Source: Alphaproteobacteria bacterium
Lineage (GTDB): Bacteria; Pseudomonadota; Alphaproteobacteria; MPNO01
Assembly (NCBI GenBank): GCA_964291675.2
Contig: OZ219866.1
Span: 3,424,001-3,488,000, forward strand
Direction of reading: 5' to 3'
Length of the DNA stretch: 64,000 nt
Every line of letters starts with the position of its first letter. The first letter of the stretch is position 1. This document shows, piece after piece, positions 1-46,773 of this stretch. A program made the translations under genes and the position numbers. The notes beneath the pieces are model-generated. The model was not told the DNA's origin, made no database searches, and saw only the letters and a program-made list of their open reading frames with translations.

Positions 1-112
1 GCTGACCGCAAACCCGGCGGCCTCCCGCGATGGCTGAGCGGCGGCCCGGCACGAGCTCGGGCCGCCGGGTCCCGGCTCGTTCCGGGGGCGCGATGCGCCG
101 GGCGGTGAGGAG

Positions 113-1210: not shown

Positions 1211-1212
1211 CC

Positions 1213-2136: not shown

Positions 2137-2161
2137 TGCGGCGGCGGCGGGAGAGGACGGG

Positions 2162-2950
2162 ATGAGCAGGGCGGCGCCCCCCTTGCTGACCGCCTATGTC
2201 GGGTTGGTGACCGTCTTCCTGCTGGGACCCATCGTGGTCGCCATCGTGCTGTCGTTCAGCAATGTCTCGCAGCTGGTGTTTCCGCCGCCCGGCTTCAGCC
2301 TCCAATGGTACGAGGTGGCGTGGGACAATCGCAAATTCGTCGACGGTTTCGTGGTCAGCACGATCATCGCGGCCATCAGCAGCGCGATGGCGGGGGTGGC
2401 GGGAACGCTGGCGGCGATTGCCATCAACAACTACCGCTTCTTCGGGCGCTCGGCGGTTCAGTCCCTGGTGATCATGCCGCTGATCATCCCGGCGGTGGTG
2501 GTCGGGCTCGGGCTGCTGCAAACCCTGTCCTCGGTCGGCATTCGCCCCGGCATCCTTGCCGCGTCGCTCGGGCACAGCATCATCGGGATACCCTATGTCG
2601 TCTATCTGGTCCTTGCCGCCCTGTCCGGATACGACATCCGGCTGGAGCACGCCGCGCAGTCGCTCGGGGCTTCGCGGCTGAGGACCTTCCTCGACATCAC
2701 CTATCCGGCCGTCCGGCCCGGCATGATCGCGGGCGTCGCCTTCGCCTTCCTGATGTCCTTCGACAATGTCGCGATGTCGATCTTCCTCGCGCGCGGGAAC
2801 CCGCTGCCGCTGCGCCTGATGCAGCACATCCAGTACTACGCCGATCCCAGCGTGGCGGCGGTATCGACGGTTCTCGTGGCGATCTCGCTGGTCGGGCTCG
2901 TCCTGTTCGGACGGATGCTGCGCAAGCGGGACATCGGCAATCTCGCCTGA
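2162..2950 (+). CDS. ABC permease, PotC-like
   Basis: FPPPGFSLQWY; EHAAQSLGAS; FLMSFD. Confidence 0.88.
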   Translation: MSRAAPPLLTAYVGLVTVFLLGPIVVAIVLSFSNVSQLVFPPPGFSLQWYEVAWDNRKFVDGFVVSTIIAAISSAMAGVAGTLAAIAINNYRFFGRSAVQSLVIMPLIIPAVVVGLGLLQTLSSVGIRPGILAASLGHSIIGIPYVVYLVLAALSGYDIRLEHAAQSLGASRLRTFLDITYPAVRPGMIAGVAFAFLMSFDNVAMSIFLARGNPLPLRLMQHIQYYADPSVAAVSTVLVAISLVGLVLFGRMLRKRDIGNLA

Positions 2951-3019
2951 ACCCAAGGCGGCTGCGGTCTTCTCCGGCCGTGCAATATGCCTTCGGAACC
3001 CCGCAGTCGGACGTTCCGC

Positions 3020-4255
3020 CTAGCCGGCCGCCAGGGCGGCCATGCGCTGGCGGTCGAGCACGGCCCCGTGGCTCACCACATGGACCGGCGCGCTGTGGTT
3101 GCGCAGCGCCTCGACCGTGTTCGGTTCCCCCAGCACCACCAGATGAGCGGGATTGCCCGGCGCCAGGGCGAAATCCGCGACATTCATCGCGCGCGCGGCA
3201 TCCACCGTCACCAAGTCGTAGAGCCGGTCGATCTCCTCGCGTGCCGTCATCCAGAGAAGGTGCGAGGCGAGGAACGCCACCTCCAGCATGTTGTTGCGGC
3301 CGAACGGGTAGTAGGCGTCCGAGATGTCGTCCTGGCCGAGGCAGACCAGGACGCCGTCTTCGAGGAATTCCTTCACCCGCGCGTGCAGGGGGCCCGTATG
3401 GGGGTCGCTCACCACCGGGACCCGGGCGCGCTTGAGGATCGCCGAGAGGCGCTTGAAATAGGCCTCCGGGTAGAGCGCCATGGCGCGGCAGTGATGCGCC
3501 AGCGCGCGGCCCTCCCAGCCGCGCTCGATCGCCTCGACGGCCATCGTCTCGAGCGTGCGCAGCCCCGGATCGCCGGCGTCGTCGAGCAGCATCGAGACGT
3601 CCTTGTCGAATTCCGCCGCGAGGTCGAAACAGACCCGTATATGCGCGGCGGCGTCGGCCTCGGTGAACTCGATCCAGGGTATCCCTCCCACCACGTCGGC
3701 GCCCATCTCCATCGCCTCGCGCATCAGCGCATCGGCGCCCGGCTCGCGGACGATGCCGTCCTGGGCGAAGGCGACGACCTGGATGTCGACGATGCCGCGG
3801 AACTCGTCCCTGACCGCCAGCAGCCCCTTCACCCCTTCGAGCCGCGCCTTGGTGTCCACGTCGGCGAAGGCGCGGATGTGCAGATTGCCGTGCAGCGCCG
3901 CGAGCGCGGCCGCGCGCCTGGCGTTGTCGGTGATCCAGGACGCGTCGTACTTCTCCTTGACCAGGCTCGCGAGCTCGATGGCGGTCATCGTCTTGCCCAT
4001 CTGGCCCTCGCGATAGGCCTTGAGCGCGTCGTCCTGCATCATCTCCAGCGTCCACACCTTGCACATGTGGAGATGCGGATTGGCGAAGGACTCGGTGACC
4101 AGCCCGCCCGCCGCGTCTATCTCGGTGTCCGCCGCGACGTCGAGCGCGGGAGCGATTTCGGCGATCTTGCCGCCGGCGATGGCGATGTCGCGCAGCCCTT
4201 CCGCCTGCCGGCGAAGACGCGCGTTTCGGATCAGGATGTCGCAGTTTTCAGGCAC
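3020..4255 (-). CDS. Cytosine deaminase (CodA)-like amidohydrolase
   Basis: NPHLHMCK metal motif, QVVAFAQDG, VVGGIP, GQDDISDAYYPFG; GTG start inferred at 4255. Confidence 0.8.
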   Translation of the reverse strand: MPENCDILIRNARLRRQAEGLRDIAIAGGKIAEIAPALDVAADTEIDAAGGLVTESFANPHLHMCKVWTLEMMQDDALKAYREGQMGKTMTAIELASLVKEKYDASWITDNARRAAALAALHGNLHIRAFADVDTKARLEGVKGLLAVRDEFRGIVDIQVVAFAQDGIVREPGADALMREAMEMGADVVGGIPWIEFTEADAAAHIRVCFDLAAEFDKDVSMLLDDAGDPGLRTLETMAVEAIERGWEGRALAHHCRAMALYPEAYFKRLSAILKRARVPVVSDPHTGPLHARVKEFLEDGVLVCLGQDDISDAYYPFGRNNMLEVAFLASHLLWMTAREEIDRLYDLVTVDAARAMNVADFALAPGNPAHLVVLGEPNTVEALRNHSAPVHVVSHGAVLDRQRMAALAAG

Positions 4256-4278
4256 CGTCTCTCTCCGGGGCTGTGTGG

Positions 4279-5103
4279 TCAGGCGAGGCGCGAGGCGTAG
4301 GCGCGCAGGTACTCGTCGCGGCGCGCCTCGACCCGGGTTCGGATCTTGTCCCCCGAGGCGCTCATCTCCGCGAGGTCGGCATTGGACAGCGTCCCGGTCA
4401 GGACCGCCTGGAAGCTCGCCCGCGACTTGATCCGGCCCCACCAGGCCGCGGTCGCCGGACGGCCGGCGGTCCAGACATCGAGCAGACCGAGATACTCGGC
4501 GCGGGCGAAATAGGGCGTCACCGCCGCCTCGGCGAGCGTGTACCGGTCCCCGGCGAGCCAGCTCCCGGTCTTCGCCAGCCGGGCCTCCAGGTCCCGGACC
4601 AGCCTCTCATGGGCGGCGACGGCTCTGAACGCGAAGCGCGAGGCGACGCCGTCCTCCACCGAAGACCGGTAGAAATCCTCGCGGCCCGGGTTGCCGACAT
4701 TGCGAAACCGCTTCTCCCGTTCCGCCTCTTCCATGGCCAGCATGCGGTCGCGGAACATGGCGCAGAAGCTCAGCACCGAGCCGGCTTCGTGGATCTCCTC
4801 GTCGACCAGCTTGGTCCATTGCCGGACTTCAGCGCGCCCGGCCGGATCGCCGGGCATCAGCGGCGGGGCGGGGAAGGTCTCTTCCAGATATTCGCAGATG
4901 ACGGTCGACTCGACGATCGTCGCGCCGTCATGCACCAGGGTCGGCACCACGCCGCGCGGGTTTATGCGGAGATAGTCCGGGTCGTACTGCGCGCTCAGGA
5001 ACAGCGGAACCGTCACGGTCTCGTAGTCGAGACCCTTCTCGGCCAGGACCAGCTCGACCTTGTGGCAACAGACCGCGTTATGGTCGCGGTAGAGTGTCAG
5101 CAT
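4279..5103 (-). CDS. Glutathione S-transferase (LigF/PcpC-like architecture)
   Basis: C-terminal part of ORF 4279-7923: MLTLY..CCHKV, INPRGVVPTL, ESTVICEYL, WLAGDRYTLAE. Confidence 0.88.
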   Translation of the reverse strand: MLTLYRDHNAVCCHKVELVLAEKGLDYETVTVPLFLSAQYDPDYLRINPRGVVPTLVHDGATIVESTVICEYLEETFPAPPLMPGDPAGRAEVRQWTKLVDEEIHEAGSVLSFCAMFRDRMLAMEEAEREKRFRNVGNPGREDFYRSSVEDGVASRFAFRAVAAHERLVRDLEARLAKTGSWLAGDRYTLAEAAVTPYFARAEYLGLLDVWTAGRPATAAWWGRIKSRASFQAVLTGTLSNADLAEMSASGDKIRTRVEARRDEYLRAYASRLA

Positions 5104-33183: not shown

Positions 33184-34800
33184 ATGGCCGATCGTCCGCG
33201 CGTCGTCGTCGTCGGGGGCGGCCCGGTCGGGCTCGCGCTCGCCGTCGATCTGGGCTTGCGCGGCGTCGCCTGCACCCTGGTCGAGCGGCGCACCGAGCCC
33301 CACCGCATCCCCAAGGGCCAGAACCTTACCCAGCGCACGCTCGACCTGTTCTATTCCTGGGGCATCGCCGACGAGCTGCGCTCCCGGCGGGTCATCCGGC
33401 CCGGCTTCCCCGGCAACGCCATCGTCGCCTATGGCGACCTCGCGGGCGCGCACTGGTTTGCCGGCGTCTACCGGACCGCGGTCGACAAGTACTACTTCCA
33501 GCGGAGCGAACGGCTGCCGCAATACCTCACCGAGCAGGTGCTGCGGGACCGCCTCGCCGGGATCCCGGCGGTCGGGGTGAGGGAGGGCTGGTCCGCCGAA
33601 GCGGTGCGGCAGTCGGCGGGCGGCGCCGCCGTCGACATCGCCGAGCAAGGCGGCACCGTGCGCGAAACCGTCGAGGCGGACTATGTCGTCGGCTGCGACG
33701 GCAGCCGGTCCACGGTGCGCGACAGCGCGGGCCTCGCCTCCGGCGGAACCGATTACGAGCAGACCATGGTGCTCGCCGTGTTCCGCTCGCCCGCGCTCGG
33801 CGAGCGGCTGAAGCGCTTTCCGCCGGCCTATATCTACCGGGTGGTGCACCCGGACCTGAACGGCTACTGGCGCTTCTTCGGGCGGATCGACGAGCATGAG
33901 GGCTGGTTCTTCCACGCGCCCGTAGGCTCGGCGGAACGGAGCGAGGCGGGGGTCCGCGCGCTGCTCCGCGAGGCCGCCGGCTTCGAGTTCGACTGCAGCT
34001 TCGAGCATATCGGCTACTGGGATCTGCGCGTCTCGATTGCCGAGGCGTTTCGCGCGGGCCGCGTGTTCATCGCCGGCGACGCGGCGCACAGCCACCCGCC
34101 CTATGGCGGGTACGGTCTCAATACCGGGTTCGAGGACGCGGCCAATCTGGGGTGGAAGCTGGCGGCGGTGCTGCAGGGCTGGGGCGGCGACGCCCTGCTC
34201 GACTCCTATAGCGAGGAGAGGCAGGAGGTGGCCAGGGACACGGCGGCGGAATTCATCGACAGCCGGATCTCCGCCGACCGCGAGCTGTTCGACCGGATCC
34301 ACCCCGAACGCGACGCCGAGGCGTTCGCGCGCGGCTGGGCGGCTTATGCCGAGGCCGGGAACAGGCATTTGAACAGCTACGCGCCCCATTACGAGGGATC
34401 GACCGCGATCGCCGGCCCGCAAGGCGGGGTCACCGGCGCCGCATCGGCGCGCAGCGAGCGGGCGCGGCCGGGCCACTACTTGCCGCCGTGGCGGCTCGCT
34501 TCGGGGCGCAACGTCTTCGAGGAGCTGGGGCGCGGGTTCACCCTGGTCGCGCTCGGCGCCGCCGACGCGAGCATCGCTCGCCTCCAGCGCGCCTGCGCGG
34601 AACGCTCGATCCCGCTCAAAATCGTCCGCGGGCCGGCGCCCGAGAGCCTGGGCGCCGGTCTCGTCCTGGTCCGCCCGGACGGCTACGTCGCCTGGGCTGG
34701 CGACGCCCCCCCGGAAAGCGCGGACGCGCTGATGGCGCGGGTGACGGGTTCGGCTACCCGCCCATCAGGCCCGGCAGGTAGAGCGTCAGCCCCGGGATGA
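33184..34800 (+). CDS. FAD-dependent monooxygenase (PheA/TfdB/MhpA type)
   Basis: VGGGPVG, GCDGSRS, AGDAAHSHPPYGGYGLNTG, LVRPDGYVAW. Confidence 0.88.
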   Translation: MADRPRVVVVGGGPVGLALAVDLGLRGVACTLVERRTEPHRIPKGQNLTQRTLDLFYSWGIADELRSRRVIRPGFPGNAIVAYGDLAGAHWFAGVYRTAVDKYYFQRSERLPQYLTEQVLRDRLAGIPAVGVREGWSAEAVRQSAGGAAVDIAEQGGTVRETVEADYVVGCDGSRSTVRDSAGLASGGTDYEQTMVLAVFRSPALGERLKRFPPAYIYRVVHPDLNGYWRFFGRIDEHEGWFFHAPVGSAERSEAGVRALLREAAGFEFDCSFEHIGYWDLRVSIAEAFRAGRVFIAGDAAHSHPPYGGYGLNTGFEDAANLGWKLAAVLQGWGGDALLDSYSEERQEVARDTAAEFIDSRISADRELFDRIHPERDAEAFARGWAAYAEAGNRHLNSYAPHYEGSTAIAGPQGGVTGAASARSERARPGHYLPPWRLASGRNVFEELGRGFTLVALGAADASIARLQRACAERSIPLKIVRGPAPESLGAGLVLVRPDGYVAWAGDAPPESADALMARVTGSATRPSGPAGRASAPG

Positions 34801-35203
34801 ACACGATCAGCGCCAGGCGGACGATGTCGGCGACGAAGAACGGGCTGATGCCGGCGAAAATGCCCCACAGCGACATCTCCGGCATGATGGTCTTGAGCAC
34901 GAACACGTTCATGCCGATCGGCGGCGTGATCAGGCTGATCTCGGTCACCATGATGACTACGATGCCGAACCAGATCAGGTCGAAGCCGAGGCTCTGGACC
35001 ACGGGGAAGAAGATCGGCACGGTCAGCAGGATCATGCCGATGCCCTCGAACACGCAGCCCAGCGCGATATAGATCAGGCAGATCACCAGCACGACGGTGA
35101 TCGGGGCGATCTCCAGCGAGTTCACCCAGTCGACGATCTGGTTGGGCATACCCGAGATGTTCATGAAGTTGGACAGGATGATCGCGCCGAAGGCGACGCT
35201 GAA
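34754..35203 (-). pseudogene. TRAP large permease DctM, 3' part (interrupted)
   Basis: FDLIWFGI..EISLITPPIGMNVF; reading frame continues at 48780-48920 after removing the insertion. Confidence 0.88.
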
Positions 35204-35374
35204 GTAACCCTCCGGCGTAGGCCGCCTGTTGAGCAGGCGCAGGCTTTCAGCGGGGATTGGGGGCTGATCCGCTTGGATTAATCGAGGTTTTGGGGAAGGT
35301 GCCCCCCGGCGATCTTGCAAGAAGGCCGCCGGAGGGCTTGTCTCGGTGACAGCTACATCAACTGAGACGCCCCA

Positions 35375-35989
35375 ATGTCGCACAAGCTGTTCCGTCACTC
35401 CATCCTCTGCAACGCCCGGGTTTGGGACTTTCTGAAGCAGGTCGACGCAGCCGAGGCGGAGGCCTGCCGTGCGGTGGGCTGTCCTCACTGCGGCGGGACG
35501 CTTCACAGCGCGGCCTACCCTCGCAAGCCGTACGGTCTGGCGGCGGATCTTCGGGACGATGTGCGGCGCTTCAGCCTGTGCTGTTCGGTGTGCAGGCGCC
35601 GGGTGCGTCCTGCCTCGGTGCGTTTCTTCGGTCGGAGGTTCTACGTCGGTGCGCTGTTCCTGCTGGTGAGCGCACTGGCGCTGACCGGCGGGGTGCGGTT
35701 GCAGACGATCGCGCGGCGCTGTGGGGTTCCGGTCTCGACGCTGAAGCGCTGGCGTCGCTGGTGGCTGGACGCCTTCCCGGCGACCCCGGAGTGGGCGGCG
35801 AAGCGGGGCGAGCTGGCGACACCGGCCGGGGAAGCGCCTGTGCGCCGGCTGCTGCGCCTGATGCGGGGCCGGGGCCTGCGGGCGCGGCTGCTGCGGAGCC
35901 TGGTCTGGCTGATGCCGTGGACCGGTTCTTGCGCGCTCGGCGCCGGGCCGGCTTCGCCCGCAGAAAGCGTTTCTGTCATGAACGGATAG
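35375..35989 (+). CDS. Transposon-associated Zn-ribbon + HTH protein (DUF6431-like)
   Basis: CPHCG...CCSVCRRR; IARRCGVPVSTLKRWRRWW. Confidence 0.7.
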   Translation: MSHKLFRHSILCNARVWDFLKQVDAAEAEACRAVGCPHCGGTLHSAAYPRKPYGLAADLRDDVRRFSLCCSVCRRRVRPASVRFFGRRFYVGALFLLVSALALTGGVRLQTIARRCGVPVSTLKRWRRWWLDAFPATPEWAAKRGELATPAGEAPVRRLLRLMRGRGLRARLLRSLVWLMPWTGSCALGAGPASPAESVSVMNG

Positions 35990-36038
35990 GGGCTCTTACA
36001 CCGGCATCTCCCCAACAGGGCGAGGGAGGGATGCCGGG

Positions 36039-37493
36039 ATGGACAGCAACGACGGGAGCGAGCGTCGCGACCGGTGGGCGCGGCTGCGCTTCGCGGTGGT
36101 CGGGCCGCTTCTGGCCTCGCCGCCGCCGAAGGGGAAGCTGCGGGCCGAGCTGGAGCGGCTGGCCGGACGCGAGTGGGAACATCCGTCCGGCAAGGGGCCG
36201 GTGCGCTTCTCGGCCTCCACGATCGAGCGCTGGTACTACCAGGCGCGGGCGCAGGAGCAGGACCCGGTCAAGGCGCTTCGCCGAAAGCCACGGGCCGACA
36301 TCGGCCGCGAACGGGCGATATCGGCGGCACTGATCGAGGTGTTGCGCGATCAGTACCGGGCGCATCCGTCGTGGTCGGCACAGCTGCACCATGAGAACCT
36401 GGCGGCGCTGGTCGCGGCCGATCCGGCGCTCGGCCCGATGCCGTCCTATGCGACGCTCACCCGGGCGATGCGGGCTCGCGGGCTGGTGCGCAAGCGCCGG
36501 CGCAAGTGGCACGAGAGCGAGGCGCGGCCGCCTGTCCAGGCCCGCGAGGTACTGAGCTACGAGGTCACGCGCAGCCACGCCCTGTGGCACAGCGATATGC
36601 ATACCGCCAAGTGTCGTGTGCTGACGGCCTCGGGCGAGTGGAAGACGCCGATCCTTCTGGGCTTTCTCGACGACCACTCCCGGCTCGGCTGCCACCTTCA
36701 GTGGTATCTCGCCGAGACCGCAGAGGTCTTCGTCCATGGGCTGTGCCAGGCGTTGATGAAGCGGGGCCTGCCGCGGTCCCTGCTGACCGACAACGGCTCG
36801 GCGATGACCGCCGGCGAGGTCGAGGAAGGGTTGCTCCGGCTCGGCATCGCGGGGGTCACGACGCTCGCGTACAGCCCGCATCAAAATGGAAAGATCGAGA
36901 CTTTCTGGGGCACGGTCGAATCACGCCTGATGGCCCAGCTCGAAGGCGTCGACGCGCTCACCCTGAAGATGCTCAACGACGCCACCGTCGCCTGGCTGGA
37001 GCAGGACTATCACCGCCGCGAGCACCGCGAACTCGGCATGTCGCCGCATCGGCGCCTCGCCGGGAGCGTCGACGCATCGCGGCCCTGCCCCGGCGCGGCC
37101 GAGCTCAAGGCGGCCTTCCGCATCACGAGGAAGCGCATGCTCCGGCGCTCGGACGGCACCGTCTCGGTCGAGAACATCCGCTACCAGATACCGCCGCCGT
37201 GGCGCCACCTGCGCGAGGCCTGGGTCCGCTATGCGCGCTGGGACCTCAGCAGCGTCGATCTGGTCGACGGCCGGGGCGGCGAACGGCTGTGCACGCTCTA
37301 TCCCCTCGACAAGCGCGGCAACGCCGATGGTGTGCGCCGTCCCATCGGCCCCGGCGACGACGATGGCAAGGGCGGCGAGGGGACAGGCGGACTGCCGCCG
37401 CTGCTCAAGAGCATGCTCGACGCGCAGGCTGCAACCGGCCTGCCGCCGGCATGGCTTGCCTTCGATGACACCCGCGATGATGGAGAACGCTGA
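36039..37493 (+). CDS. DDE transposase/integrase, Mu/TnsB-like
   Basis: N-terminal HTH (STIERW), WHSD, LDDHSR, TDNGS, NGKIETFW; Mu-like C-terminus. Confidence 0.88.
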   Translation: MDSNDGSERRDRWARLRFAVVGPLLASPPPKGKLRAELERLAGREWEHPSGKGPVRFSASTIERWYYQARAQEQDPVKALRRKPRADIGRERAISAALIEVLRDQYRAHPSWSAQLHHENLAALVAADPALGPMPSYATLTRAMRARGLVRKRRRKWHESEARPPVQAREVLSYEVTRSHALWHSDMHTAKCRVLTASGEWKTPILLGFLDDHSRLGCHLQWYLAETAEVFVHGLCQALMKRGLPRSLLTDNGSAMTAGEVEEGLLRLGIAGVTTLAYSPHQNGKIETFWGTVESRLMAQLEGVDALTLKMLNDATVAWLEQDYHRREHRELGMSPHRRLAGSVDASRPCPGAAELKAAFRITRKRMLRRSDGTVSVENIRYQIPPPWRHLREAWVRYARWDLSSVDLVDGRGGERLCTLYPLDKRGNADGVRRPIGPGDDDGKGGEGTGGLPPLLKSMLDAQAATGLPPAWLAFDDTRDDGER

Positions 37494-38326
37494 TGAACCG
37501 CGAACACCTCACCCTGTACGGGCTCAAGTGGAACCCGTTCGCCCCTGACCTCCCGGTCGACAGCCTGATGGCGACTGGCGCCGTCGACAGCTTCTGCCTC
37601 AGGATCGAACGCCATCTCGTGCGCCACGGCGGCTTCGCACTGATCGCCGGAGAGCCCGGAACCGGAAAGAGCGTTGCCCTGCGCCTGCTCGCCCACCGGC
37701 TCGGGCGATGCGACGGGCTCAGGGTCGCCGCCATCACCCACCCGTCCTCGAGACTGTCGGACTTCTACCGCGAGATCGGCGAGCTGTTTGGCGTCGACCT
37801 GCTGTACAACAATCGCTGGGCCAGCTTCAAAAACCTGCGCCAGCGCTGGCTCGCGCATCTCGATGACACCCGCATGCGCCCGGTGTTGCTCATCGACGAG
37901 GCCCAGGAACTGCTGCCCTCGGTGTTCTCCGAGATCCGCCTGCTCGCGTCGACCGACTTCGACTCGCGCGCCATCCTCTCCGTCGTCTTCGCCGGTGACA
38001 ACCGCCTGCTCGACCGGCTCCGCCAGCCCGACCTGCAGCCCATCGCCTCGCGTATCCGACAGCGTCTGCTGATGACCCGGACCGAGGACGCCGACCTGGC
38101 CGGCCTGCTCGACCATCTGCTCGAAGAGGCCGGCAATCCGGCGCTGATGACCGCCGGGCTCAGGGACACCCTCGTCACCCATGCCGCAGGAAACCCCAGG
38201 GCACTCACCGTCATGGCTGATGCCGTGCTCGCAGCCGGTGCCGAGAAGGATCGCGAGGTGCTCGACGAGAAGCTCTTCATCGAGACCCTCGGCGAGGCAC
38301 CGCCAGCCAGGCGGGCCCGGCGATGA
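37493..38326 (+). CDS. ExeA/TniB/MuB-like AAA+ ATPase
   Basis: LKWNPF, GEPGTGKS, LLIDEAQ, GNPRAL. Confidence 0.88.
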   Translation: MNREHLTLYGLKWNPFAPDLPVDSLMATGAVDSFCLRIERHLVRHGGFALIAGEPGTGKSVALRLLAHRLGRCDGLRVAAITHPSSRLSDFYREIGELFGVDLLYNNRWASFKNLRQRWLAHLDDTRMRPVLLIDEAQELLPSVFSEIRLLASTDFDSRAILSVVFAGDNRLLDRLRQPDLQPIASRIRQRLLMTRTEDADLAGLLDHLLEEAGNPALMTAGLRDTLVTHAAGNPRALTVMADAVLAAGAEKDREVLDEKLFIETLGEAPPARRARR

Positions 38327-39312
38327 CCGGCTTCCCGACACGGCCACCGGCCGAACTCGAGGAGCGGCCGCGGGAGCGGCAGTGGCTGGTCGATGCCCTG
38401 TGGAGCGAACAGGGGGTCGGCATCGTCGGCGGCGAGCCCAAGTGCGGCAAGTCCTTCCTCGCGCTGGACCTCGCCGTCGCGGTGGCTGCAGGAGTGCCCT
38501 GCCTGCGCCACTTCCGCCCCGCGGCAAGCGGCACCGTGTTGCTCTTCGCCGCCGAGGACGCCGGTCACATCGTGCGCGACCGCCTCAAGGGCATCGCCCG
38601 GGCCGCCGGCGCCGACTTCGAGGCCCTCGACATCGCCGTCATCGACGTGCCCACGCTCCGCCTCGATCATCGCCTCGACCGGCAGCGGCTGCTGGAGACC
38701 GTCGAACGGATCGGACCGCGCCTCCTCGTCCTCGATCCCCTGGTCCGCCTGCATGGCGTCGACGAGAACGCGGTTGCGGAAGTCGCTCCCATCCTCGGCT
38801 TCCTGCGCGACCTGCAGCGCCGCTTCGGGACCGCTGTGCTGCTCGTCCACCACGCTCGCAAGAGTGGCGCCAGCCGCCCCGGCCAGGCGCTGCGCGGCAG
38901 CAGCGAGCTGCATGCCTGGGGCGACAGCAATCTCTACCTGCGCCGGCGCGACGGGCAGATCGTCATGACCGCCGAGCATCGCGCCGCACCCGGCCTCAAC
39001 AATATCGAGATCGAGCTTGCCGATGACGGCGAAGGACCAGCGCTGCAGCTCCGGCGGACAGGACCTCACCAGGCTCCGCCGCAGCCGGACAGCGCCGAAC
39101 AGCGGATCGCCCAGGTGCTCGCGACAGCCGAATCCCCACTCGTGCAGTCCGAGATCCGAAAACGCGCCGGGGTACGCAACGCGACTGTCTCCGCGGCACT
39201 GCACGGGCTTGTGCGCGAGGGACGGGTCGAGCGCGGGACGGGAGGTCGCTACCGCTTCCTCGGAACCGCGGCGAACCAAGCCGACAACCCGACGGACAGC
39301 CACAACCCGTAG
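38323..39312 (+). CDS. AAA_25 RepA/RecA-fold helicase-like ATPase with C-terminal wHTH
   Basis: WLVDALW, GGEPKCGKS, LLVLDPL, LVHHARK, LRGSS. Confidence 0.85.
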   Translation: MTGFPTRPPAELEERPRERQWLVDALWSEQGVGIVGGEPKCGKSFLALDLAVAVAAGVPCLRHFRPAASGTVLLFAAEDAGHIVRDRLKGIARAAGADFEALDIAVIDVPTLRLDHRLDRQRLLETVERIGPRLLVLDPLVRLHGVDENAVAEVAPILGFLRDLQRRFGTAVLLVHHARKSGASRPGQALRGSSELHAWGDSNLYLRRRDGQIVMTAEHRAAPGLNNIEIELADDGEGPALQLRRTGPHQAPPQPDSAEQRIAQVLATAESPLVQSEIRKRAGVRNATVSAALHGLVREGRVERGTGGRYRFLGTAANQADNPTDSHNP

Positions 39313-39327
39313 GCGAAGCAGCCCCTC

Positions 39328-39381
39328 TTCCCGTTCCCGTTCCGGCGAACCCTTAAGCGTTGCAGGGAACGGGAACGGGAA
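39328..39381. repeat. Perfect 16-bp inverted repeat built from GGGAAC units
   Basis: ttcccgttcccgttcc-22 nt-ggaacgggaacgggaa. Confidence 0.85.
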
Positions 39382-39714
39382 CACCAGCGCACAATGCCCC
39401 ACGAAACTGCCTGAAGCGATCGGCCAATGGCCGAAAGCTCTGCTTACGGCCATGGCAGCCCTCTGGCGCGGGGACGGCGGCGGGTCACCCGAAGGGCCGT
39501 AGCGGAGCGAAGGAGCCGCGAAGCGGCTTGAAGCGCCGACGGCCTCGCGACACTCCCCGCCCGGCCTTCCTGCAAACGGCAGACGATCCCCATCGAATAA
39601 CGCGAAATCCGCACCATCAAACAACGTGCGCGCGCTCACTGTTCCGATGGGGGGCGTTTGGTGGGTCTGAGTGCTTGGGAAGTGGGCCCTTGTTAAGTGT
39701 CCACTTAGCGGCAA

Positions 39715-40146
39715 GTGGACACTTGGCCGATGTCGGTTGCGAGTGAGAAGCCGGGCGCGGGAAGCGGTGAGACGGCCGATCGGCGGCGCCGTCGGTGGAG
39801 CGAGGCTCAGAAGCGCCAGATCGTCGCGGAGAGCCATGAGCCTGGGGTTTCGGTGTCGGTCGTTGCGCGGCGTTACAACGTCAATGCCAACCAGGTCTTC
39901 ACCTGGCGTCGGCGGTTCCGCGAGGCGGCGCGCGACGCCGGGGCTGGCCGGTTGGTGCCGGTGGTGGTCGAAGCGCCTTGCGACGGGGAGGCCGGCGCGT
40001 CGGCGCCGTGCCGGTCGTCCGGGGACGTTGTCGCGGCGGCGGGGCGGATCGAGATTGCGCTGGCGTGCGGCGCGCGTGTGATCGTCGGCCGGGCGGTGGA
40101 CGGTGTGGCTCTGGCCCGGGTTCTTGCGGTTCTGGATCGGCGATGA
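39715..40146 (+). CDS. tnpA: IS66 accessory protein TnpA
   Basis: RRRRWSEAQKRQIVAES..VSVVARRYNVNANQVFTWRR. Confidence 0.9.
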   Translation: MDTWPMSVASEKPGAGSGETADRRRRRWSEAQKRQIVAESHEPGVSVSVVARRYNVNANQVFTWRRRFREAARDAGAGRLVPVVVEAPCDGEAGASAPCRSSGDVVAAAGRIEIALACGARVIVGRAVDGVALARVLAVLDRR

Positions 40147-40490
40147 TCCCGGTTCCGGGTGGTGTGCGGGTGTGGCTGGCGACCGGGGTGACGGACATGC
40201 GTCGCGGCATGAACACGCTGGCGCTGCAGGTCCAGGAGGATCTCGGGCGCGACCCTCACGCGGGCGATCTCTACGTTTTCCGGGGCCGTCGCGGCGACCT
40301 GATCAAGATTCTCTGGCACGACGGGGTTGGGATCTCGCTGTATGCCAAGCGGCTTGAGCGGGGCCGGTTCCAGTGGCCGACCACGTCTGGGGGCGCGGTG
40401 TCGATCGGCGCGGCGCAGCTCGGCTACCTGCTGGAAGGGATCGACTGGCGGAATCCGGTTCGGACCTGGCGGCCGTCGCGGGCGGGCTGA
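40143..40490 (+). CDS. tnpB: IS66 accessory protein TnpB
   Basis: MIPVP..VWLATGVTDMRRG, FRGRRGDLIKILWHDG, KRLERGRF. Confidence 0.95.
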   Translation: MIPVPGGVRVWLATGVTDMRRGMNTLALQVQEDLGRDPHAGDLYVFRGRRGDLIKILWHDGVGISLYAKRLERGRFQWPTTSGGAVSIGAAQLGYLLEGIDWRNPVRTWRPSRAG

Positions 40491-40561
40491 TCGGCGGGGG
40501 AGCCGTGCGGTCGGCGCGATTGTTGTAGCGCCGAATCGGGTGCTGTGATTCGATTCCGCCA

Positions 40562-41943
40562 ATGACCGGCGGATCCAACATTGCATCTCTGAAGGCGGCG
40601 CTTGCGGCGGCCGAGGCGCGGGCCGCGAACGCCGAGGCGAAGGTGTCGGACGCCGAGGCGGAGATCGCTTTCCTCAAGCTGGCGGTCGAGAAGCTCCGGC
40701 GCGAGCTCTACGGGCAGCGCTCGGAGCGCAAGCAGCGGCTTCTCGACCAGCTCGAGCTGCAACTCGACGAGCTTGAGGCGAACGCGACGGAGGACGAGCT
40801 GGCGGCCGAGCAGGCGGCGGCCGGCACGACCGAGGTCAAGGGGTTCACGCGGCGCAAGCCGGCCCGCAAGCCGTTCCCGGCGCATATTCCGCGCGAGCGG
40901 AAAGTGGTTCCGCCGCCGACATTCTGCGCGTGCTGCGGCTCGGAGAAGCTGTCGAAGATCGGCGAGGACGTGACCGAGACGCTGGAGGCGATCCCGCGCC
41001 AGTGGAAGGTGATCCAGACGGTGCGCGAGAAGTTCACCTGCCGGGCTTGCGAGAAGATCGGCCAGCCGCCGGCGCCGTTCCACCCGACGCCGCGGGGCTG
41101 GGCTGGCCCCAACCTGCTGGCGACGATCCTGTTCGAGAAGTACGGGCAGCACCAGCCGTTGAACCGCCAGCGCGACCGCTACGCGAGGGAGGGTATCGAT
41201 CTCAGCCTGTCGACCCTGGCCGACCAGGTGGGCGCGTGCACGGTGGCGCTGAAGCCGCTGCACGATCTGATCGAGGCCCATGTCATGGCGGCGGAACGCC
41301 TGCATGGCGACGACACCCCGGTGCCGGTGCTGGCCAGGGGCAGGTGCGCCACCGGGCGGGCCTGGGTCTATGTGCGCGATGACAGGCCGTTCGGCGGTCC
41401 GGATCCGCCGGCGGCGCTGTTCCGCTACGCGCGGGACCGGTCCGGCGCTCACCCGGTCGCGCATCTGGAGACCTTCGCCGGCATCCTCCAGGCCGACATC
41501 TACGCCGGCTACAACGCCCTCTATGTGGCCGGGAGATTGCCCGGGCCCGTGATCGAGGCTGCGTGTTGGGCGCATTCGCGAAGGAAGTTCTTCGATCTCG
41601 CCGACATCGCGGCCGGGAAGAGGCGCGGCAAGGACCCGCCGCCGGTCTCGCCGCTCGCGCTGGAGGCGGTGAAGCGGATCGACGTGCTGTTCGATATCGA
41701 GCGCGGGATCGTCGGCAAGTCCGCGGAGGAGCGCCTCGCCGTGCGCCGGGAGTTGAGCGCGCCGGTGCTGGCCGAACTCAAGGAGTGGATGCGGGCCGAG
41801 CGCGTGAAGCTGTCGAAACATGCCCCGGTGGCCAAGGCGATGGACTACATGCTCAGGCGCTGGGAGCTGTTCGCCCGCTTCCTCGACGACGGCCGCATCT
41901 GCCTCACCAACAATGCCGCCGAGAGGGCGCTCAGAGGTATTGC
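40562..41943 (+). pseudogene. tnpC: IS66 transposase TnpC, 5' part (interrupted at RGIA|LGR)
   Basis: LYGQRSE, LHGDDTP, CWAHSRRKF, TNNAAERALRGIA. Confidence 0.92.
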
Positions 41944-41971
41944 GACGATGGAGTCATTCTGCACCCCTTCT

Positions 41972-44044
41972 TCAAGTGTCTGAAAACATTGACATCTGAT
42001 CCCGACATGAAGCGCGACGCGGGTCTTTCCGCAGTGCCAGGGCGTTGGCGACCCGCTCGGAATGGAGGTCTTTGGCCCTGATTTGCCAGGGCGCTCCGGG
42101 AACGAGTTGCGTGGCAGGTAGCGTTCCATCCTCGATCAGGCGCCTGAGGGTATGGCTGGTCGTGCCCAACTCTTTCGCCGCCTCGGTCATGGTGCGCCAG
42201 TCGCCCTGCTTGTCCGCTGAGAGGTAGCCGTCGATCCCGTTCACACGCCGGATCGATCCGACCCGGTGAGCGGTCCAACTCTTGTGCTGCCCGGTCCGCA
42301 TACCCATCCGGTTGAGCGACGCGGCGATATGTTCGTCCGACCATCGCCCGGCCATGCTGCGTATCACTGCCAGAGCTTCCTCGGGCGTTCGGCAGCCATG
42401 TTCGCCGCTCTTGGGCTTGCGGACCCTGAGACGGGAATGACGGCCACCCATCCAGTGGATCGTCAGCAGGACGTCACGCGCCTCTTCGTCGACATCGACG
42501 ATTATGCCCATGATCAGGGTGCGCACGAGACGCTGGCGGGCGCGCATGCTCACCCCGGGCGCGTTCCAGGCGGCCTTCAGGTCGTCGGCAAGTCCGGCCA
42601 GGTCGGGGACAGTGGGCCGCGGCGACGGCATCGCGCCCAGCCTTGCTTCGCACGCCTGGACGCGTCGAAGCGCTGCCTCCCAACTCTTCTCCAGCTCGGC
42701 GGCGATCAGCCGGTTGTCCGGATCGCAGGCGGCGTAGCGCCGCTCGGCGAGCGCCGCCTCGTAGCGGGCTTGCTGCAGATCCAGCTCGGCCACCCGTTGC
42801 TGTTCGGAAAGACCCTCCGCGTTCATCCGCTCGGCTTCCAACGAGGCTTCCACCGCCATGGGCTCCACGACGCGGAGGATCTCATCGGCAACGGCCGCAT
42901 CCACACGCGCACCCCCGAACCCCAGACAGGGCTCTAGCTCGAGCTGGAGGTGTCGCCGATTGCAGCGGTAGACAGGATTGCCGGGCGTGCGACCGGAATA
43001 GGCAACGCTCATCGTGCGTCCGCAGCGTGCGCAACTGAGGAGGCCGCCAAGAAGCGCCCGCCCGCCGCGCCCCGACTTCGTGCCCCCCGCCTTGCCGAAG
43101 GCATTGGCGGCGAGCTGCGCCTGGTTGCGCTCGAACTCCGGCCAGTCGATGTAGCCCTCGTGATGGTCCTTCAGCACGACCTCCCATTCCGCCATCGGCT
43201 TGCGGTGTCCATAGCTCTTGCGCACGCGCCCGTCGACGATCTCGGTCCGCCGCTCGCTTTTGCCGTAAGCGTAGACCCCGGCGTAGAAAGGGTTCTTCAA
43301 CACCGAAATTACGTTGCGATAGCGGATCGGCGTCCAGTCGAAGGAGACCATTGTCCTGCCATCCGACGGGCGTGGGAAGCAAAGCTTCTGCCCGCTCAGC
43401 GCCAGCAACACCTGCCGCGCGCTGCCAAGCTCGCGAAACCGGGCGAATACCTGACGGATCGCTTCCTGAACCCGAATGTCGGGGTCCAGCCCCAGCCCGG
43501 CCTCGGGATGCCAGACGTAGCCGATCGGGACGCTGATGCGAAGCTCGCCGCGGGCGGCCTTGGAGCGGGCGGCCTCGAACATCCGAGCGCGCAGAACGCC
43601 GAGTTCGAACTCGCTGATCTGGCCCTTCATGCCGAGCAGCAGACGATCGTTGGGGTGGCGAGGATCGTAGATGCCATCCTGGTCGATGACGCGTGCCTCG
43701 ACGAGACCGCAGAGCTCGAGAAGATGGTGCCAGTCCCGGCCGTTGCGAGAGACCCGCGAAGCCTCGAAACAAAGCACGGCTCCAACGTCCCCGGCGCACA
43801 GCCAGGCGACGAGGCGCTCGAAACCGGGCCGCGCAACGGCACCGTCCGCCGACAGGCCCTGATCGTCGTCGATGACTTCGACCCGGGCAAAGCCGTGCCC
43901 GCGCGCCACATCGACGAGATCGTATTGGCGGCGCTGGCTCTCCAGATTGTTCCGCATCTGCTGGGGCGTGGACTGACGGACATAGACCACGGCCTTGCGC
44001 GTCAACACCGATCGCGGCAACGCTTCAGCGACGCCCATCGTCAT
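41972..44044 (-). CDS. Large serine recombinase (Y4bA/Y4pH-like) with Zn ribbon and C-terminal HTH
   Basis: AVVYVRQST, SRVSRN, LLLGMKGQISE, CARCG..YRC, terminal TEAAKELGTTSHTLRRLI. Confidence 0.93.
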   Translation of the reverse strand: MTMGVAEALPRSVLTRKAVVYVRQSTPQQMRNNLESQRRQYDLVDVARGHGFARVEVIDDDQGLSADGAVARPGFERLVAWLCAGDVGAVLCFEASRVSRNGRDWHHLLELCGLVEARVIDQDGIYDPRHPNDRLLLGMKGQISEFELGVLRARMFEAARSKAARGELRISVPIGYVWHPEAGLGLDPDIRVQEAIRQVFARFRELGSARQVLLALSGQKLCFPRPSDGRTMVSFDWTPIRYRNVISVLKNPFYAGVYAYGKSERRTEIVDGRVRKSYGHRKPMAEWEVVLKDHHEGYIDWPEFERNQAQLAANAFGKAGGTKSGRGGRALLGGLLSCARCGRTMSVAYSGRTPGNPVYRCNRRHLQLELEPCLGFGGARVDAAVADEILRVVEPMAVEASLEAERMNAEGLSEQQRVAELDLQQARYEAALAERRYAACDPDNRLIAAELEKSWEAALRRVQACEARLGAMPSPRPTVPDLAGLADDLKAAWNAPGVSMRARQRLVRTLIMGIIVDVDEEARDVLLTIHWMGGRHSRLRVRKPKSGEHGCRTPEEALAVIRSMAGRWSDEHIAASLNRMGMRTGQHKSWTAHRVGSIRRVNGIDGYLSADKQGDWRTMTEAAKELGTTSHTLRRLIEDGTLPATQLVPGAPWQIRAKDLHSERVANALALRKDPRRASCRDQMSMFSDT

Positions 44045-44856: not shown

Positions 44857-46773
44857 GAGTGCCAGGCTAACTGGTGGAAGGGTAGCGGGTGAAAGTCCCG
44901 CGAAACGAAAGGAGTAGCCAACCACGTTTCTCCGCGAGCCGTGCATCGTCGGCCGTGAGGCCGGGGGTGAAGCGTCGGTAGCGGTGCATGCGGGCAGGGA
45001 TATTGAGCGCCGAAAACGAGATGGTCCGAAGTGCCGAGACGTTTAAGCTCGTCGAAGGCAACATCGTCCACACCGCAATATGGCGAGGTGTGGGGGAGCT
45101 TCGCGGCGTCGGGGACCCCATGCACGCATGTAAGCCCACCACCGGGACCTGGGAGGTCTTCACACTGCCCCGATGGTCGTATCGGGGCCGCGAAGGGAAG
45201 GAGGTATCCGAAGCCTGAGATGAACGGAGTGAAGAAGTCGGACGGGGCCATAGTACCGTCGAAGCGGGCGAACAACGGGGCGCGAGCCTCTGCGGAGTCC
45301 GTGGAGGAAAGGGCCTCGACCAAGGGGAATCCGCGAAGCGAAAGCACGCGCCGGACGCAGAGCCGGGAAAGCGTGACCCAGGCCGCCGAGCGGATACGTC
45401 AAGCTGCAACGAGGAAACCGCAGGAGAAACTGACGGCGCTCCTGCATCATGTCACGCCGGACGCGCTGCGCTGGGCCTTCCACGCGCTGAAGCGGGACGC
45501 CGCGGCGGGGGTGGACGGCATGACATGGGCCGAGTACGCGAACGGGCTGGAAGAGCGGCTGCTCGACCTGCACCGGCGCGTACAGTCCGGGGCGTATCGG
45601 GCGCCGCCGGTCCGGCGGGTAGAGATACCCAAGCCGGATGGCGGGACACGACCGCTCGGCGTCGCCGCGCTGGAGGACAAGATCGTCCAGAAGGCGGTGA
45701 CGGAGATCATCCTGACGCCGATCTACGAGCCGGTCTTCCTCGGCTTCAGCTACGGGTTCCGACCGGGGCGCGGGGCGCATGACGCACTCGACGCGCTTGC
45801 TGTCGCCATCAATCGGCGGAAGGTCAACTGGGTGGTCGACTGCGACATCCAAAGGTTTTTCGATTCTGTTTCGCGGGACTGGCTCGTCCGGTTCCTTGAG
45901 CACCGGATCGGGGATCGGCGGGTGATCCGGCTGATCGCCAAGTGGCTGAAAGCCGGCGTCATGGTCGATGGCCGGTGGGAGGACACGCAGCAGGGCACGC
46001 CGCAAGGGGCGATCGTCTCAGCCACGCTGGCGAACGTGTATCTGCACTATGTCCTCGACCTCTGGTTCCATCGCAAGTGGCGGCCCGAAAGGGCAGATGG
46101 CGATGCCATCATCGTACGCTACGCCGATGATGTGGTCGTCGGCTTCCAGCGCAAGAGGGACGCGGAACGCTTCCTGCATGCGCTTGGGGAACGGCTCGGC
46201 CAGTTCGATCTGGCCCTGCATCCGGCCAAGACCCGGCTCATCGAGTTCGGCAGGTTCGCGGAAGTGGACCGCCGGGCACGGGGGCTGGGCCGCCCGGAGA
46301 CGTTCGACTTCCTGGGCTTCACGCACTATTGCAGGACGACCAGGAGCGGGCAGTTCGGGCTCGGACGCAAGCCCGTTGCAAAGCGGATGAGCCGCACCCT
46401 GAAGCGCATCGCGGAGGTTCTGCGGCGGCGCAGGCACCACGACCTCCACGAGGTCGCCCGGTGGCTGGGGCGGGTAGTCAACGGATGGCTGAACTACTAC
46501 GCCGTCCCGACGAGTGCCCGCTTCCTGCGAAGCTTCACCTACATCCTGAAACGGATATGGCTGAAGGCGCTGCGCCGACGGTCGCAACGGGATCGCTTCA
46601 GCTGGCAACGGCTGCAAGCCCTGGTTGACCGATACTGGCCCAAGCCATGGATCCGACACCCGTGGCCGGGGCAGCGGTTCGACGTCAAATACCCGAGGTA
46701 GGAGCCGGATGGCTTAACGGCCACGTCCGGATCTGTGCGGGGGGCGCCGGGAAACCGGCGTCCCTACCGCGAC
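44857..46773 (+). mobile_element. Group II intron 1
   Basis: 5' GAGTG (GUGYG variant); DV gagccggatggcttaacggccacgtccggatc; DVI ending CCCTACCGCGAC; EBS1 loop TAAGC (45044-48) pairs with exon GCTTA. Confidence 0.88.
45220..46701 (+). CDS. ltrA: Group II intron reverse transcriptase/maturase
   Basis: AAAGVDG, IPKPDGGTRPLG, SYGFRPGR, GTPQG, RYADD, FDFLGF, GWLNYY; no HNH domain. Confidence 0.95.
   Translation: MNGVKKSDGAIVPSKRANNGARASAESVEERASTKGNPRSESTRRTQSRESVTQAAERIRQAATRKPQEKLTALLHHVTPDALRWAFHALKRDAAAGVDGMTWAEYANGLEERLLDLHRRVQSGAYRAPPVRRVEIPKPDGGTRPLGVAALEDKIVQKAVTEIILTPIYEPVFLGFSYGFRPGRGAHDALDALAVAINRRKVNWVVDCDIQRFFDSVSRDWLVRFLEHRIGDRRVIRLIAKWLKAGVMVDGRWEDTQQGTPQGAIVSATLANVYLHYVLDLWFHRKWRPERADGDAIIVRYADDVVVGFQRKRDAERFLHALGERLGQFDLALHPAKTRLIEFGRFAEVDRRARGLGRPETFDFLGFTHYCRTTRSGQFGLGRKPVAKRMSRTLKRIAEVLRRRRHHDLHEVARWLGRVVNGWLNYYAVPTSARFLRSFTYILKRIWLKALRRRSQRDRFSWQRLQALVDRYWPKPWIRHPWPGQRFDVKYPR

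Follow-up and report, generated by a model that had tools for sequence, protein, structure and literature searches.

In phage Mu and the Mu-like phages, a DDE transposase is paired with an AAA+ ‘DNA transposition protein’ (A and B in Mu; PHROG 310 and PHROG 296). In replicative DDE transposition as seen in Mu, the step from strand-transfer complex to replication fork depends on factors of the host, and Mu replication relies on the host restart primosome. Tn5053/Tn402 (TniA, TniB, TniQ and TniR) and Tn7 (TnsA–E) share the heteromeric core of a DDE enzyme and an AAA+ partner, together with a 5-bp target duplication. Closest to the locus described here is Tn6049, found in Cupriavidus metallidurans CH34 and also in pHS87a of Pseudomonas aeruginosa. 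Tn6049 has a registry number and is described as a 3.5-kb unit with a ‘gspA’ ATPase gene that reaches 12 copies in strain CH34 (PMC2864759); its imperfect repeats measure 12 bp and its direct repeat 4 bp (PMC4739549), and its transposition module ‘could not be categorized’ (PMC6210171). Here, we analyse a 4,409-bp transposon that we assign to the same family, located at positions 35230–39638 of a 64,000-nucleotide stretch of an Alphaproteobacteria bacterium genome (the window; positions 3,424,001 to 3,488,000 of the forward strand of contig OZ219866.1, assembly GCA_964291675.2).

Besides three core genes already known from Tn6049, this transposon carries a gene for a RepA-like helicase of the AAA_25 family, accompanied by a structured element or, in some relatives, by a primase-like gene, and this helicase module is the new part. 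We establish the anatomy of the element, its recent mobility, its family relationship, and the conservation and selection of its helicase gene. We give about an even chance to the combined reading, in which a Tn6049 family member with a Mu-type core carries its own replication-start module.

A Tn6049-type core with a different fourth gene

The transposon contains four intact open reading frames (ORFs), all on the + strand, at 35375–35989 (ORF1), 36039–37493 (ORF2), 37493–38326 (ORF3) and 38323–39312 (ORF4). A gap of 49 nt follows ORF1, ORF2 and ORF3 overlap by 1 nt (TGATG), and the start of ORF4 overlaps the stop of the AAA_22 ATPase gene, ORF3, by 4 nt (ATGA); an earlier note on this DNA, made from the letters alone, had also read four apparently intact co-oriented frames with the last three overlapping. 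Six further long ORFs inside the unit have no match in Pfam.

A search of the plasmid collection with the unit returned 23 records, 20 from Cupriavidus, 2 from Paraburkholderia and 1 from Pseudomonas, with matches that are 64.7–69.8% identical at the DNA level and cover no more than 37% of the unit. On pMOL30, the corresponding unit has four genes, annotated as ‘transposase’ (181 aa), ‘IS481 family transposase’ (479 aa), ‘AAA family ATPase’ (277 aa) and a hypothetical protein of 71 aa. ORF1, the transposase and the ATPase are 41, 50 and 51% identical to their counterparts in Tn6049, where they stand in the same order, and for the transposase and the ATPase the similarity extends over the full length. 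Both elements are compact and multi-copy and have no resolvase. They differ in the fourth gene, which in Tn6049 encodes a hypothetical protein of 71–90 aa unrelated to AAA_25 and here a 329-aa AAA_25 protein; in size, at 3.5 kb versus 4,409 bp; and in the structured element, which has no match in the Tn6049 loci (L013 and L014). Compared by description, the published end sequence of Tn6049 starts with TGTGC and comes with a 4-bp repeat (PMC4739549), and the ends of the element here start with TGAGC, with duplications of 4–6 bp. Its three core genes place the element in the Tn6049 family, which is named but mechanistically undescribed, an assignment that we do not expect to fall because of the 50% identity over the full length. 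The earlier note had inferred a poorly characterised family, and the homology of the first three genes to a named transposon overturns the view that no defined relative exists.

The core is a Mu-type pair. To phage Mu and the Mu-like phages, the element is similar in pairing a DDE transposase with an AAA+ protein, in its TG...CA ends with subterminal repeats, in a modal duplication of 5 bp and in having no second-strand nuclease. It differs in being a 4.4-kb unit without phage genes, in its extra zinc-ribbon/helix-turn-helix protein and in encoding a helicase itself where Mu depends on the host for replication restart.

The likeness to Tn5053/Tn402 and Tn7 lies in the heteromeric core and the 5-bp duplication. 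The transposase aligns with Tn402 TniA at 25% identity over 207 aa, past the catalytic core, and the ATPase reaches 16.5 bits against the Pfam model of TniB, under the cut-off. ORF1, by contrast, is a different protein from TniQ: none of 115 members of its family match Pfam TniQ, and the hhalign probability of its profile against Tn402 TniQ is 0.3%. Across the four genes and the six alternative ORFs, Pfam found neither a TnsA nor a serine resolvase (TniR) family. IstB is not among the 15 Pfam matches of the ATPase, and the NCBIfam IS21 model scores 40 bits, against a cut-off of 160 bits. The element is thus neither IS21 nor Tn7/Tn5053, as the earlier note had argued from the apparent lack of an IstB-like ATPase and of TniQ, TnsA and a resolvase.

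Outside the transposons, one of the closest described systems is the hexameric helicase RepA of RSF1010 (1g8y), which belongs to the same AAA_25 fold family as ORF4 and with which the Walker A, AED, VLD, HHA-K and RGSS motifs can be aligned. The protein here differs in its C-terminal winged helix and in residing in a transposon, where no RepC-type initiator is present. In the literature searched, which placed most subscription journals outside its scope, we found no published DDE/AAA+ transposon with an AAA_25 helicase.

Exact ends, target duplications and recent mobility

A search of the element's own genome with window positions 35130–39740 returned four copies that are 100% identical over query positions 101–4509, a shared stretch that corresponds to window 35230–39638. 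Identity breaks off exactly at 35230 and 39638, and flank extraction gave a length of 4,409 bp in all four copies. The unit begins with TGAGC and ends with GCTCA, and its inverted repeat matches at 11 of the first 14 bases, as counted by eye. Four identical copies with exact shared ends bear out the earlier description of a compact four-gene transposon of this length with imperfect TG..CA terminal inverted repeats (TIRs).

The left end (35230–35374, + strand) comprises the TIR, two subterminal 12-mers that resemble the repeats at the right end when the ends of six element groups are compared, and a conserved region upstream of ORF1; a simple scan of it found no sigma-70 consensus promoter. The right end (39590–39638, − strand) comprises the TIR and two direct 12-mers at 39614–39625 and 39590–39601, read on the − strand, which are probable transposase binding sites.

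The tetranucleotide CTGT stands on both sides of the window copy, at 35226–35229 and 39639–39642, and the remaining three copies in the genome have duplications of 5 bp. For a broader view we considered 57 copies from six element groups, namely those of the own genome and five multi-copy groups of other assemblies. Of these, 28 have a duplication of 5 bp, 17 one of 4 bp and 2 one of 6 bp, and the remaining 10 have none; a duplication of 4–6 bp thus accompanies 47 of 57 copies, compared with matches of at least 4 bp in 1.6% of control pairs, in which left flanks were paired with the right flanks of other copies. Because mismatched flanks agree so rarely, the 4-bp duplication noted earlier is real for the window copy, whereas the usual length in the family is 5 bp. 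An empty site is also on record in contigs of two public runs, where 35225 is followed at once by 39639, so that 4,413 bases are missing and a single CTGT remains, with joined sides of 22–25 letters, under the 30-letter caution line. The element has been recently active.

Among the ten copies with no duplication, two pairs (L019/L020 and L054/L056; L numbers denote loci) have reciprocally swapped flanks, which points to exchange between copies and is a sign of inversion or exchange within one genome.

Three loci of the own genome are of side interest. One copy (L003, C2:3252890–3257299) lies inside an IS66 tnpC gene, and with the flanks read by eye TnpC reads on across the 5-bp duplication. 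A 77%-identical partial copy (L005, C1:13–2898) represents a second subfamily and is truncated where the contig starts, with a transposase split between two frames, and a lone 150-bp fragment of a left end (L006, C2:3241689–3241842) has 73% identity.

The helicase gene is conserved and selected in two deep clades

ORF4 (38323–39312, + strand) encodes a RepA-like NTPase of RecA fold with 329 aa, which matches Pfam AAA_25 at 130 bits and ends in a tail with weak winged-helix matches at residues ~257–312. At E ≤ 0.001 it has one solved relative, the helicase RepA of RSF1010 (1g8y), with an E value of 3e-11, and the five motifs shared with that protein are invariant in 46 relatives, in agreement with the RepA-like helicase proposed in the earlier note. 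Its PHROG matches fall on the helicase part of primase-helicases, and a homologue in the protein atlas, 83% identical, falls in AAA_25 clusters only, some of them phage-labelled. Relatives of the protein were absent from 72,556 plasmids at E ≤ 1e-10 (tblastn) and from a scan of a viral-contig collection, so that AAA_25 of this type is not a common free-standing module; in PADLOC, it had zero real matches to defence families.

To follow the gene beyond this genome we used two collections. The AAA_25 scan of species-representative genomes gave at least 318 confirmed stretches, of which we kept 80 loci, most of them labelled ‘MAG: Alphaproteobacteria’ (the marine clade). The scan of metagenome contigs gave at least 552 confirmed stretches, of which 80 loci were again kept; this second group (the soil clade) was met via longer proteins.

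In all 80 marine-clade loci, AAA_25 is directly preceded by an AAA_22 gene of the same orientation, and the order ORF1–transposase–AAA_22–AAA_25 is found wherever the contig is long enough; three loci (L045, L064 and L089) have an insertion of ~2–3.4 kb. Several genomes of this clade have many near-identical copies, among them one with 23 copies of a 4,384-bp element, one with 12 copies of 4,425 bp and one with 7 copies of a 5,185-bp variant. In the soil clade, the position of AAA_25 is kept in 77 of 80 loci, the other three being cut by contig ends, and all four genes stand in order in 49, the other 31 being contig-cut subsets with no other gene in between. Soil-clade proteins are 50–54% identical to those of the window for the transposase and 53–58% for AAA_25, a similar divergence, as co-inheritance would give. 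Whether the helicase gene is conserved within the boundaries of the element, a point on which the earlier note had staked its reading, is thereby answered in the affirmative. A naive search for inverted repeats at the ends of soil-clade elements found chance GC-rich matches only.

Ratios of non-synonymous to synonymous substitution rates (dN/dS), computed against five marine relatives, are 0.23–0.33 for AAA_25, 0.24–0.36 for the transposase, 0.15–0.35 for the ATPase and 0.28–0.40 for ORF1. The AAA_25 gene is under purifying selection like the transposase and, taken over both clades, is a conserved and selected part of the element.

Of 64 soil-clade AAA_22/AAA_25 junctions, 60 have the two genes in different frames, and 32 of these 60 keep the ATGA overlap. 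Fused AAA_22–AAA_25 proteins of 587–763 aa occur in the protein collection (P0395–P0401 and P0392; DNA locus L125); seven clusters of them are 63–88% identical to one another, and all have GEPKCCKS instead of GEPKCGKS as their second P-loop.

We placed these groups on a quick transposase tree of 40 hand-picked rows (11 marine, 20 soil, 6 Tn6049-like and 3 of a type found at locus L048; L098 was omitted). The marine, soil and Tn6049 clades form a polytomy, with the L048 type as a distant outgroup, and two truncated sequences first labelled Tn6049-like (L097 and L120) fall in the soil clade.

Two observations concern the habitats and hosts of marine-clade elements. Some loci lie on short contigs binned to other phyla: L015, L016, L043, L046, L047 and L052 are near-identical elements on contigs of 2.5–6.3 kb binned to Gemmatimonadota, Chloroflexota and Acidimicrobiales, which could reflect either mis-binning of repeats or transfer across phyla. 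Small shares of the unit also turn up in public runs, some of them from sponge and coral-reef metagenomes, which is a lead only.

A hairpin and a covarying element, or in some relatives a primase-like gene, follow the helicase gene

Directly 3′ of the AAA_25 stop lies a hairpin with two arms of 27 nt (39328–39381, + strand), recognized as an inverted repeat and kept in aligned relatives via paired changes (TTCCCG/CGGGAA versus TTACCG/CGGTAA). A scan of the hairpin region found no T-tract terminator.

It is followed by a 168-nt structured element (39406–39573, + strand), predicted by RNAalifold and covariation to form a long hairpin and a multi-branch junction closed by a long stem. Fourteen sequences aligned with MAFFT, blind to structure, show pairing in 97.1% of cells and compensatory change in 12 of 48 pairs; 0 of 500 shuffles reach these values, and slid controls pair at 27–44%. 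When the alignment is fitted to the model and distant copies are included, 26 of 48 pairs are compensatory, and G–U pairs favour the + strand. Rfam contains no match to the element, the one match elsewhere in the unit being a chance miRNA at E 0.79.

In 19 of 80 marine loci (L047, L050, L052, L054–L061, L063, L064, L074 and L086–L090), we found a primase-like gene with DUF3991 and Toprim_2 domains, located after AAA_25 in the loci read (L055 and L050). The 5,185-bp variant, present seven times in one assembly, has five genes, with a 289-aa primase-like gene (L055:7103–7972) inside the shared boundaries. In L047 and L050, the primase-like coding sequence begins where other rows of the alignment have the 168-nt element.

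Parts of the element also occur away from the transposon. Its junction core is present in the own genome just upstream of a YAcAr/SLOG gene (L105, C2:78706–78768, − strand), and a model search found it in 3 of 150 other genomes of the class, one match (L108) having no family scan. In L107 (1501–1665) and L109 (1501–1574), the core lies between a DUF7146+Toprim (Toprim_3) gene and a YAcAr/SLOG gene, and in all three scanned loci (L105, L107 and L109) it is on the strand opposite the flanking genes. As a covarying motif, the 168-nt element is new, and it connects transposons with loci of conjugative elements.

Full-length copies were found at L048:7103–7270 and L106:1501–1664. The latter sits in a ~290-bp unit (L106:1431–1722, genome G006) between inverted repeats of ~40 nt starting with TGT; none of the four genes is nearby, the unit adjoins an IS256-like fragment and it is single-copy in its genome. 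By form alone, it resembles a miniature inverted-repeat transposable element.

The geometry of the junction core recalls, as an analogy and not as a match, the single-strand promoters and priming signals (Frpo/ssi) in the leading regions of conjugative plasmids, which fold as single-stranded DNA and yield RNA primers (PMC11541004). Both are structured, and the core stands upstream of genes of the leading-region type (Toprim, YAcAr/SLOG) on the opposite strand. The 168-nt element of the transposon, in contrast, is at the 3′ end of a gene and on the coding strand, and by eye its stem has no −35/−10 pair; the likeness is one of geometry.

Transfer of the helicase module into a second Mu-type transposon

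Five marine loci (L048, L049, L051, L062 and L092) have an AAA_25 protein that is 71–73% identical to that of the window and a transposase and ATPase that are just 26–28% identical. The transposase of this type has HTH_32, rve and Mu-transposase C-terminal domains, and its partner is an AAA_22 ATPase. The unit (L048:2967–7360; also in L049) is 4,394 bp long, has TGT...ACA ends and was flanked by 5-bp duplications in both copies examined. In an AAA_25 tree of 32 rows (FastTree), the AAA_25 proteins of these units nest in the marine clade with a support of 0.955, and the structured element is present with AAA_25 in them.

The AAA_25 gene and the region downstream of it thus moved between two distant Mu-type transposons, the L048 type having acquired them from the marine clade. 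Such transposons repeatedly keep the module, and a closely matched core is unnecessary for it. Gene-by-gene identities are mosaic elsewhere too, as in L045, where AAA_22 is 96%, the transposase 72–76% and AAA_25 77% identical.

As a separate matter, the ORF upstream of the L048-type transposase was considered as an ORF1 homologue and rejected, at an hhalign probability of 0.3%; a motif resemblance seen by eye is not evidence for it.

A possible role of the helicase in replicative transposition

From these data, the following course of transposition can be proposed. ORF1 would bind DNA, at the ends or at an operator, and aid assembly or regulation, while the transposase would nick the 3′ ends and join them to a target captured by the ATPase. 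The product would be a Mu-like branched strand-transfer intermediate, to be replicated or repaired; a branched form is expected because the unit has neither a TnsA-like second nuclease nor a resolvase. The element's own helicase would be loaded at this intermediate via its winged helix, perhaps with help from the adjacent hairpin or structured element. Priming would be provided by the element's primase where there is one and otherwise by the host at a structured, ssi-like site, so that the element would be copied without dependence on the host restart primosome, and host recombination would resolve the cointegrates.

We infer, with a little less than even confidence, that the element starts its own replication at the strand-transfer intermediate, when this step is taken alone. 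It fits with the presence of a RepA-like helicase with a DNA-binding tail, the translational link of its gene to that of the ATPase, and the primase or the structured element downstream. That the helicase serves replicative transposition has circumstantial support in the Toprim gene of 19 of 80 marine loci, in the common ATGA overlap and in purifying selection.

Several observations weigh against a replicative role of the module. Tn6049 has no AAA_25 and yet reached 12 copies, and therefore the helicase is not needed by every member of the family. Neither the 168-nt element nor the Toprim gene is present in any of the 80 soil-clade loci. The transfer of the module to a core of ~27% identity argues against tight protein–protein coupling between helicase and core. 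Fusion of the ATPase and the helicase is sporadic and weak evidence, because one-frame junctions in DNA are rare (4 of 64) and mostly interrupted (3 of the 4 with a stop). The reciprocal flank swaps fit replicative transposition but equally plain homologous recombination, and none of the public runs matching the stretch is an RNA run; a run of raw reads placed none on it.

The main rival explanation is that AAA_25, the hairpin and the structured element make up a self-contained passenger or regulatory module, with the Tn6049-type core doing all the moving; the module could be a winged-helix repressor, a partition-like NTPase, an exclusion or immunity factor, or one useful to the host or to persistence. 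It would account for the multiplication of Tn6049 without AAA_25 (PMC2864759), for the exchange between cores of ~27% identity, in which the AAA_25 of L048 sits inside the marine clade (0.955) and its transposase is a far outgroup, and for mosaic identities such as those of L045. It sits less well with the fixed position of the gene and its frequent ATGA overlap with the ATPase gene, and with a soil-clade divergence of 53–58% that parallels the 50–54% of the transposase, as co-inheritance would. A module of this kind has, moreover, no relative in the plasmids (E ≤ 1e-10) or in the viral-contig scan and no PADLOC defence family, and the alternative partner at its place is a primase-like gene. 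We consider a passenger module a genuine but minority possibility.

In a second alternative, a small replicon would be made up of the helicase, the structured element in the role of origin or priming site and, in some copies, the primase; for part of the time the transposon would exist as an excised circle or single-stranded form that replicates itself and that the DDE enzyme integrates. A RepA-like helicase with a primase-like gene does resemble the replication set of RSF1010, and the 290-bp copy of the structured element, with its inverted repeats of ~40 nt, stands alone in another genome; that copy, however, is single-copy there, and the soil clade lacks the structured element. We saw neither an initiator (Rep) protein nor iterons, and Mu-type enzymes are not known to use circles. 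Among the joints in public runs there is no circle junction: a weak back-joint from 39565 to 35204 (depth 2.9, 21 letters between) is not at the ends of the element. Such a replicon is improbable.

Least probable of all is a plain IS481-family insertion sequence with passenger genes, which is suggested by the best named transposase model (E 9e-33) and by the RefSeq label ‘IS481 family transposase’ on the Tn6049 homologue, but disfavoured by a score of 114 bits against a 224-bit cut-off, by a transposase that always occurs together with the ATPase and ORF1, by a best phage-family match to PHROG 310, which is paired with PHROG 296, and by a similarity to TniA that runs beyond the catalytic core.

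Returning to the proposal that the helicase module starts replication, a wider version of it would hold that a widespread family of bacterial DDE transposons carries a primosome of its own, in which a RepA-like helicase works with a Toprim primase or with a structured single-strand priming signal to begin replication at the Mu-type strand-transfer intermediate, and that these transposons are replicative, self-priming and independent of host restart. This we regard as speculative and rather unlikely. If it were true, the 168-nt element would define a new type of priming or loading site, common to conjugative elements as well. A transposon with its own helicase and sometimes a primase would, if the proposal is correct, represent another solution to fork formation and offer a compact, accessible model in which the hand-over from transposase to replisome could be studied. 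The family has Tn6049 as its sole named member, with no described mechanism, and is abundant, with 23 copies in one genome assembly, at least 318 and at least 552 matching stretches in the two scans and 1,567 ORF1 clusters; it therefore shapes many genomes.

The three core genes

ORF2 (36039–37493, + strand) encodes a DDE transposase of 484 aa. Its rve domain scores 28 bits, under the Pfam cut-off of 32.6, and it matches the NCBIfam IS481 model at E 9e-33, with 114 bits against the cut-off of 224, and PHROG 310 ‘transposase’ at E 2e-38. The putative catalytic triad is in the motifs WHSDMH (residue 183), LTDNGS (249) and NGKIETF (283). In a thin sample of 400 other representative genomes of the class, 3 contained the transposase, one of them (G240) unpublished.

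ORF3 (37493–38326, + strand) encodes the MuB/TniB/TnsC-like ATPase of 277 aa, with a Pfam AAA_22 match of 76.8 bits and a match to PHROG 296 ‘DNA transposition protein’ at E 3e-20. Its Walker A motif is GEPGTGKS (residue 53) and its Walker B motif LLIDEAQ (132); its matches in the PDB are weak ones to Cdc6 and ShTnsC.

ORF1 (35375–35989, + strand) encodes a family-specific accessory protein of 204 aa with a zinc ribbon and a helix-turn-helix, the latter matched by Pfam HTH_23. Across 115 relatives, a CxxC...CCxxC pattern is invariant, accompanied by an RFFGRR-type stretch and conserved tryptophans. Among representatives of clusters at 50% identity, the family numbers 1,567 proteins at E ≤ 1e-3; in a thin sample of 400 representative genomes of the phylum, the profile was present in 3.

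The AlphaFold (AF2) model of ORF1 has a predicted local distance difference test (pLDDT) score of 84.1 and a predicted template modelling (pTM) score of 0.79, and places a small beta ribbon before a helical helix-turn-helix domain. Compared with the PDB, its best Foldseek match has an E value of 0.45 (zinc ribbons of NudC, TFIIS and Trm112), and neither TniQ nor TnsD is among the matches listed. With VIA-align, the best Z score is 4.3 (a TrpR-like helix-turn-helix, the NudC ribbon and the N terminus of the ISCth4 transposase), and the sequence profile found just AlpA, at E 0.013, among PDB sequences. The predicted structure is thus without a convincing solved relative, and the structure search neither names nor excludes a family. 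The suggestion in the earlier note that this protein selects the target finds no support here, as the model contains a zinc ribbon and a helix-turn-helix only, without a solved relative.

A homologue of ORF1 with 38% identity stands without a transposase at L118:599–1246 (genome G554), followed by an 888-aa protein without a Pfam family.

Genomic neighbourhood of the window copy

On the left, the element borders the C-terminal third of a TRAP DctM permease gene (34754–35229, − strand; Pfam positions 278–413 of 413); beyond the element, the N-terminal part of this gene is not found. To the right follow other mobile elements, at 39715–41983 (+ strand), 41972–44044 (− strand) and 45031–46701 (+ strand). 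They comprise an IS66 unit with TnpA, TnpB and TnpC, in which the TnpC frame ends before the Pfam IS66 transposase model does, then a large serine recombinase of 690 aa and an RVT_1 reverse transcriptase, by eye of the group II intron type. The region is a pile-up of mobile DNA.

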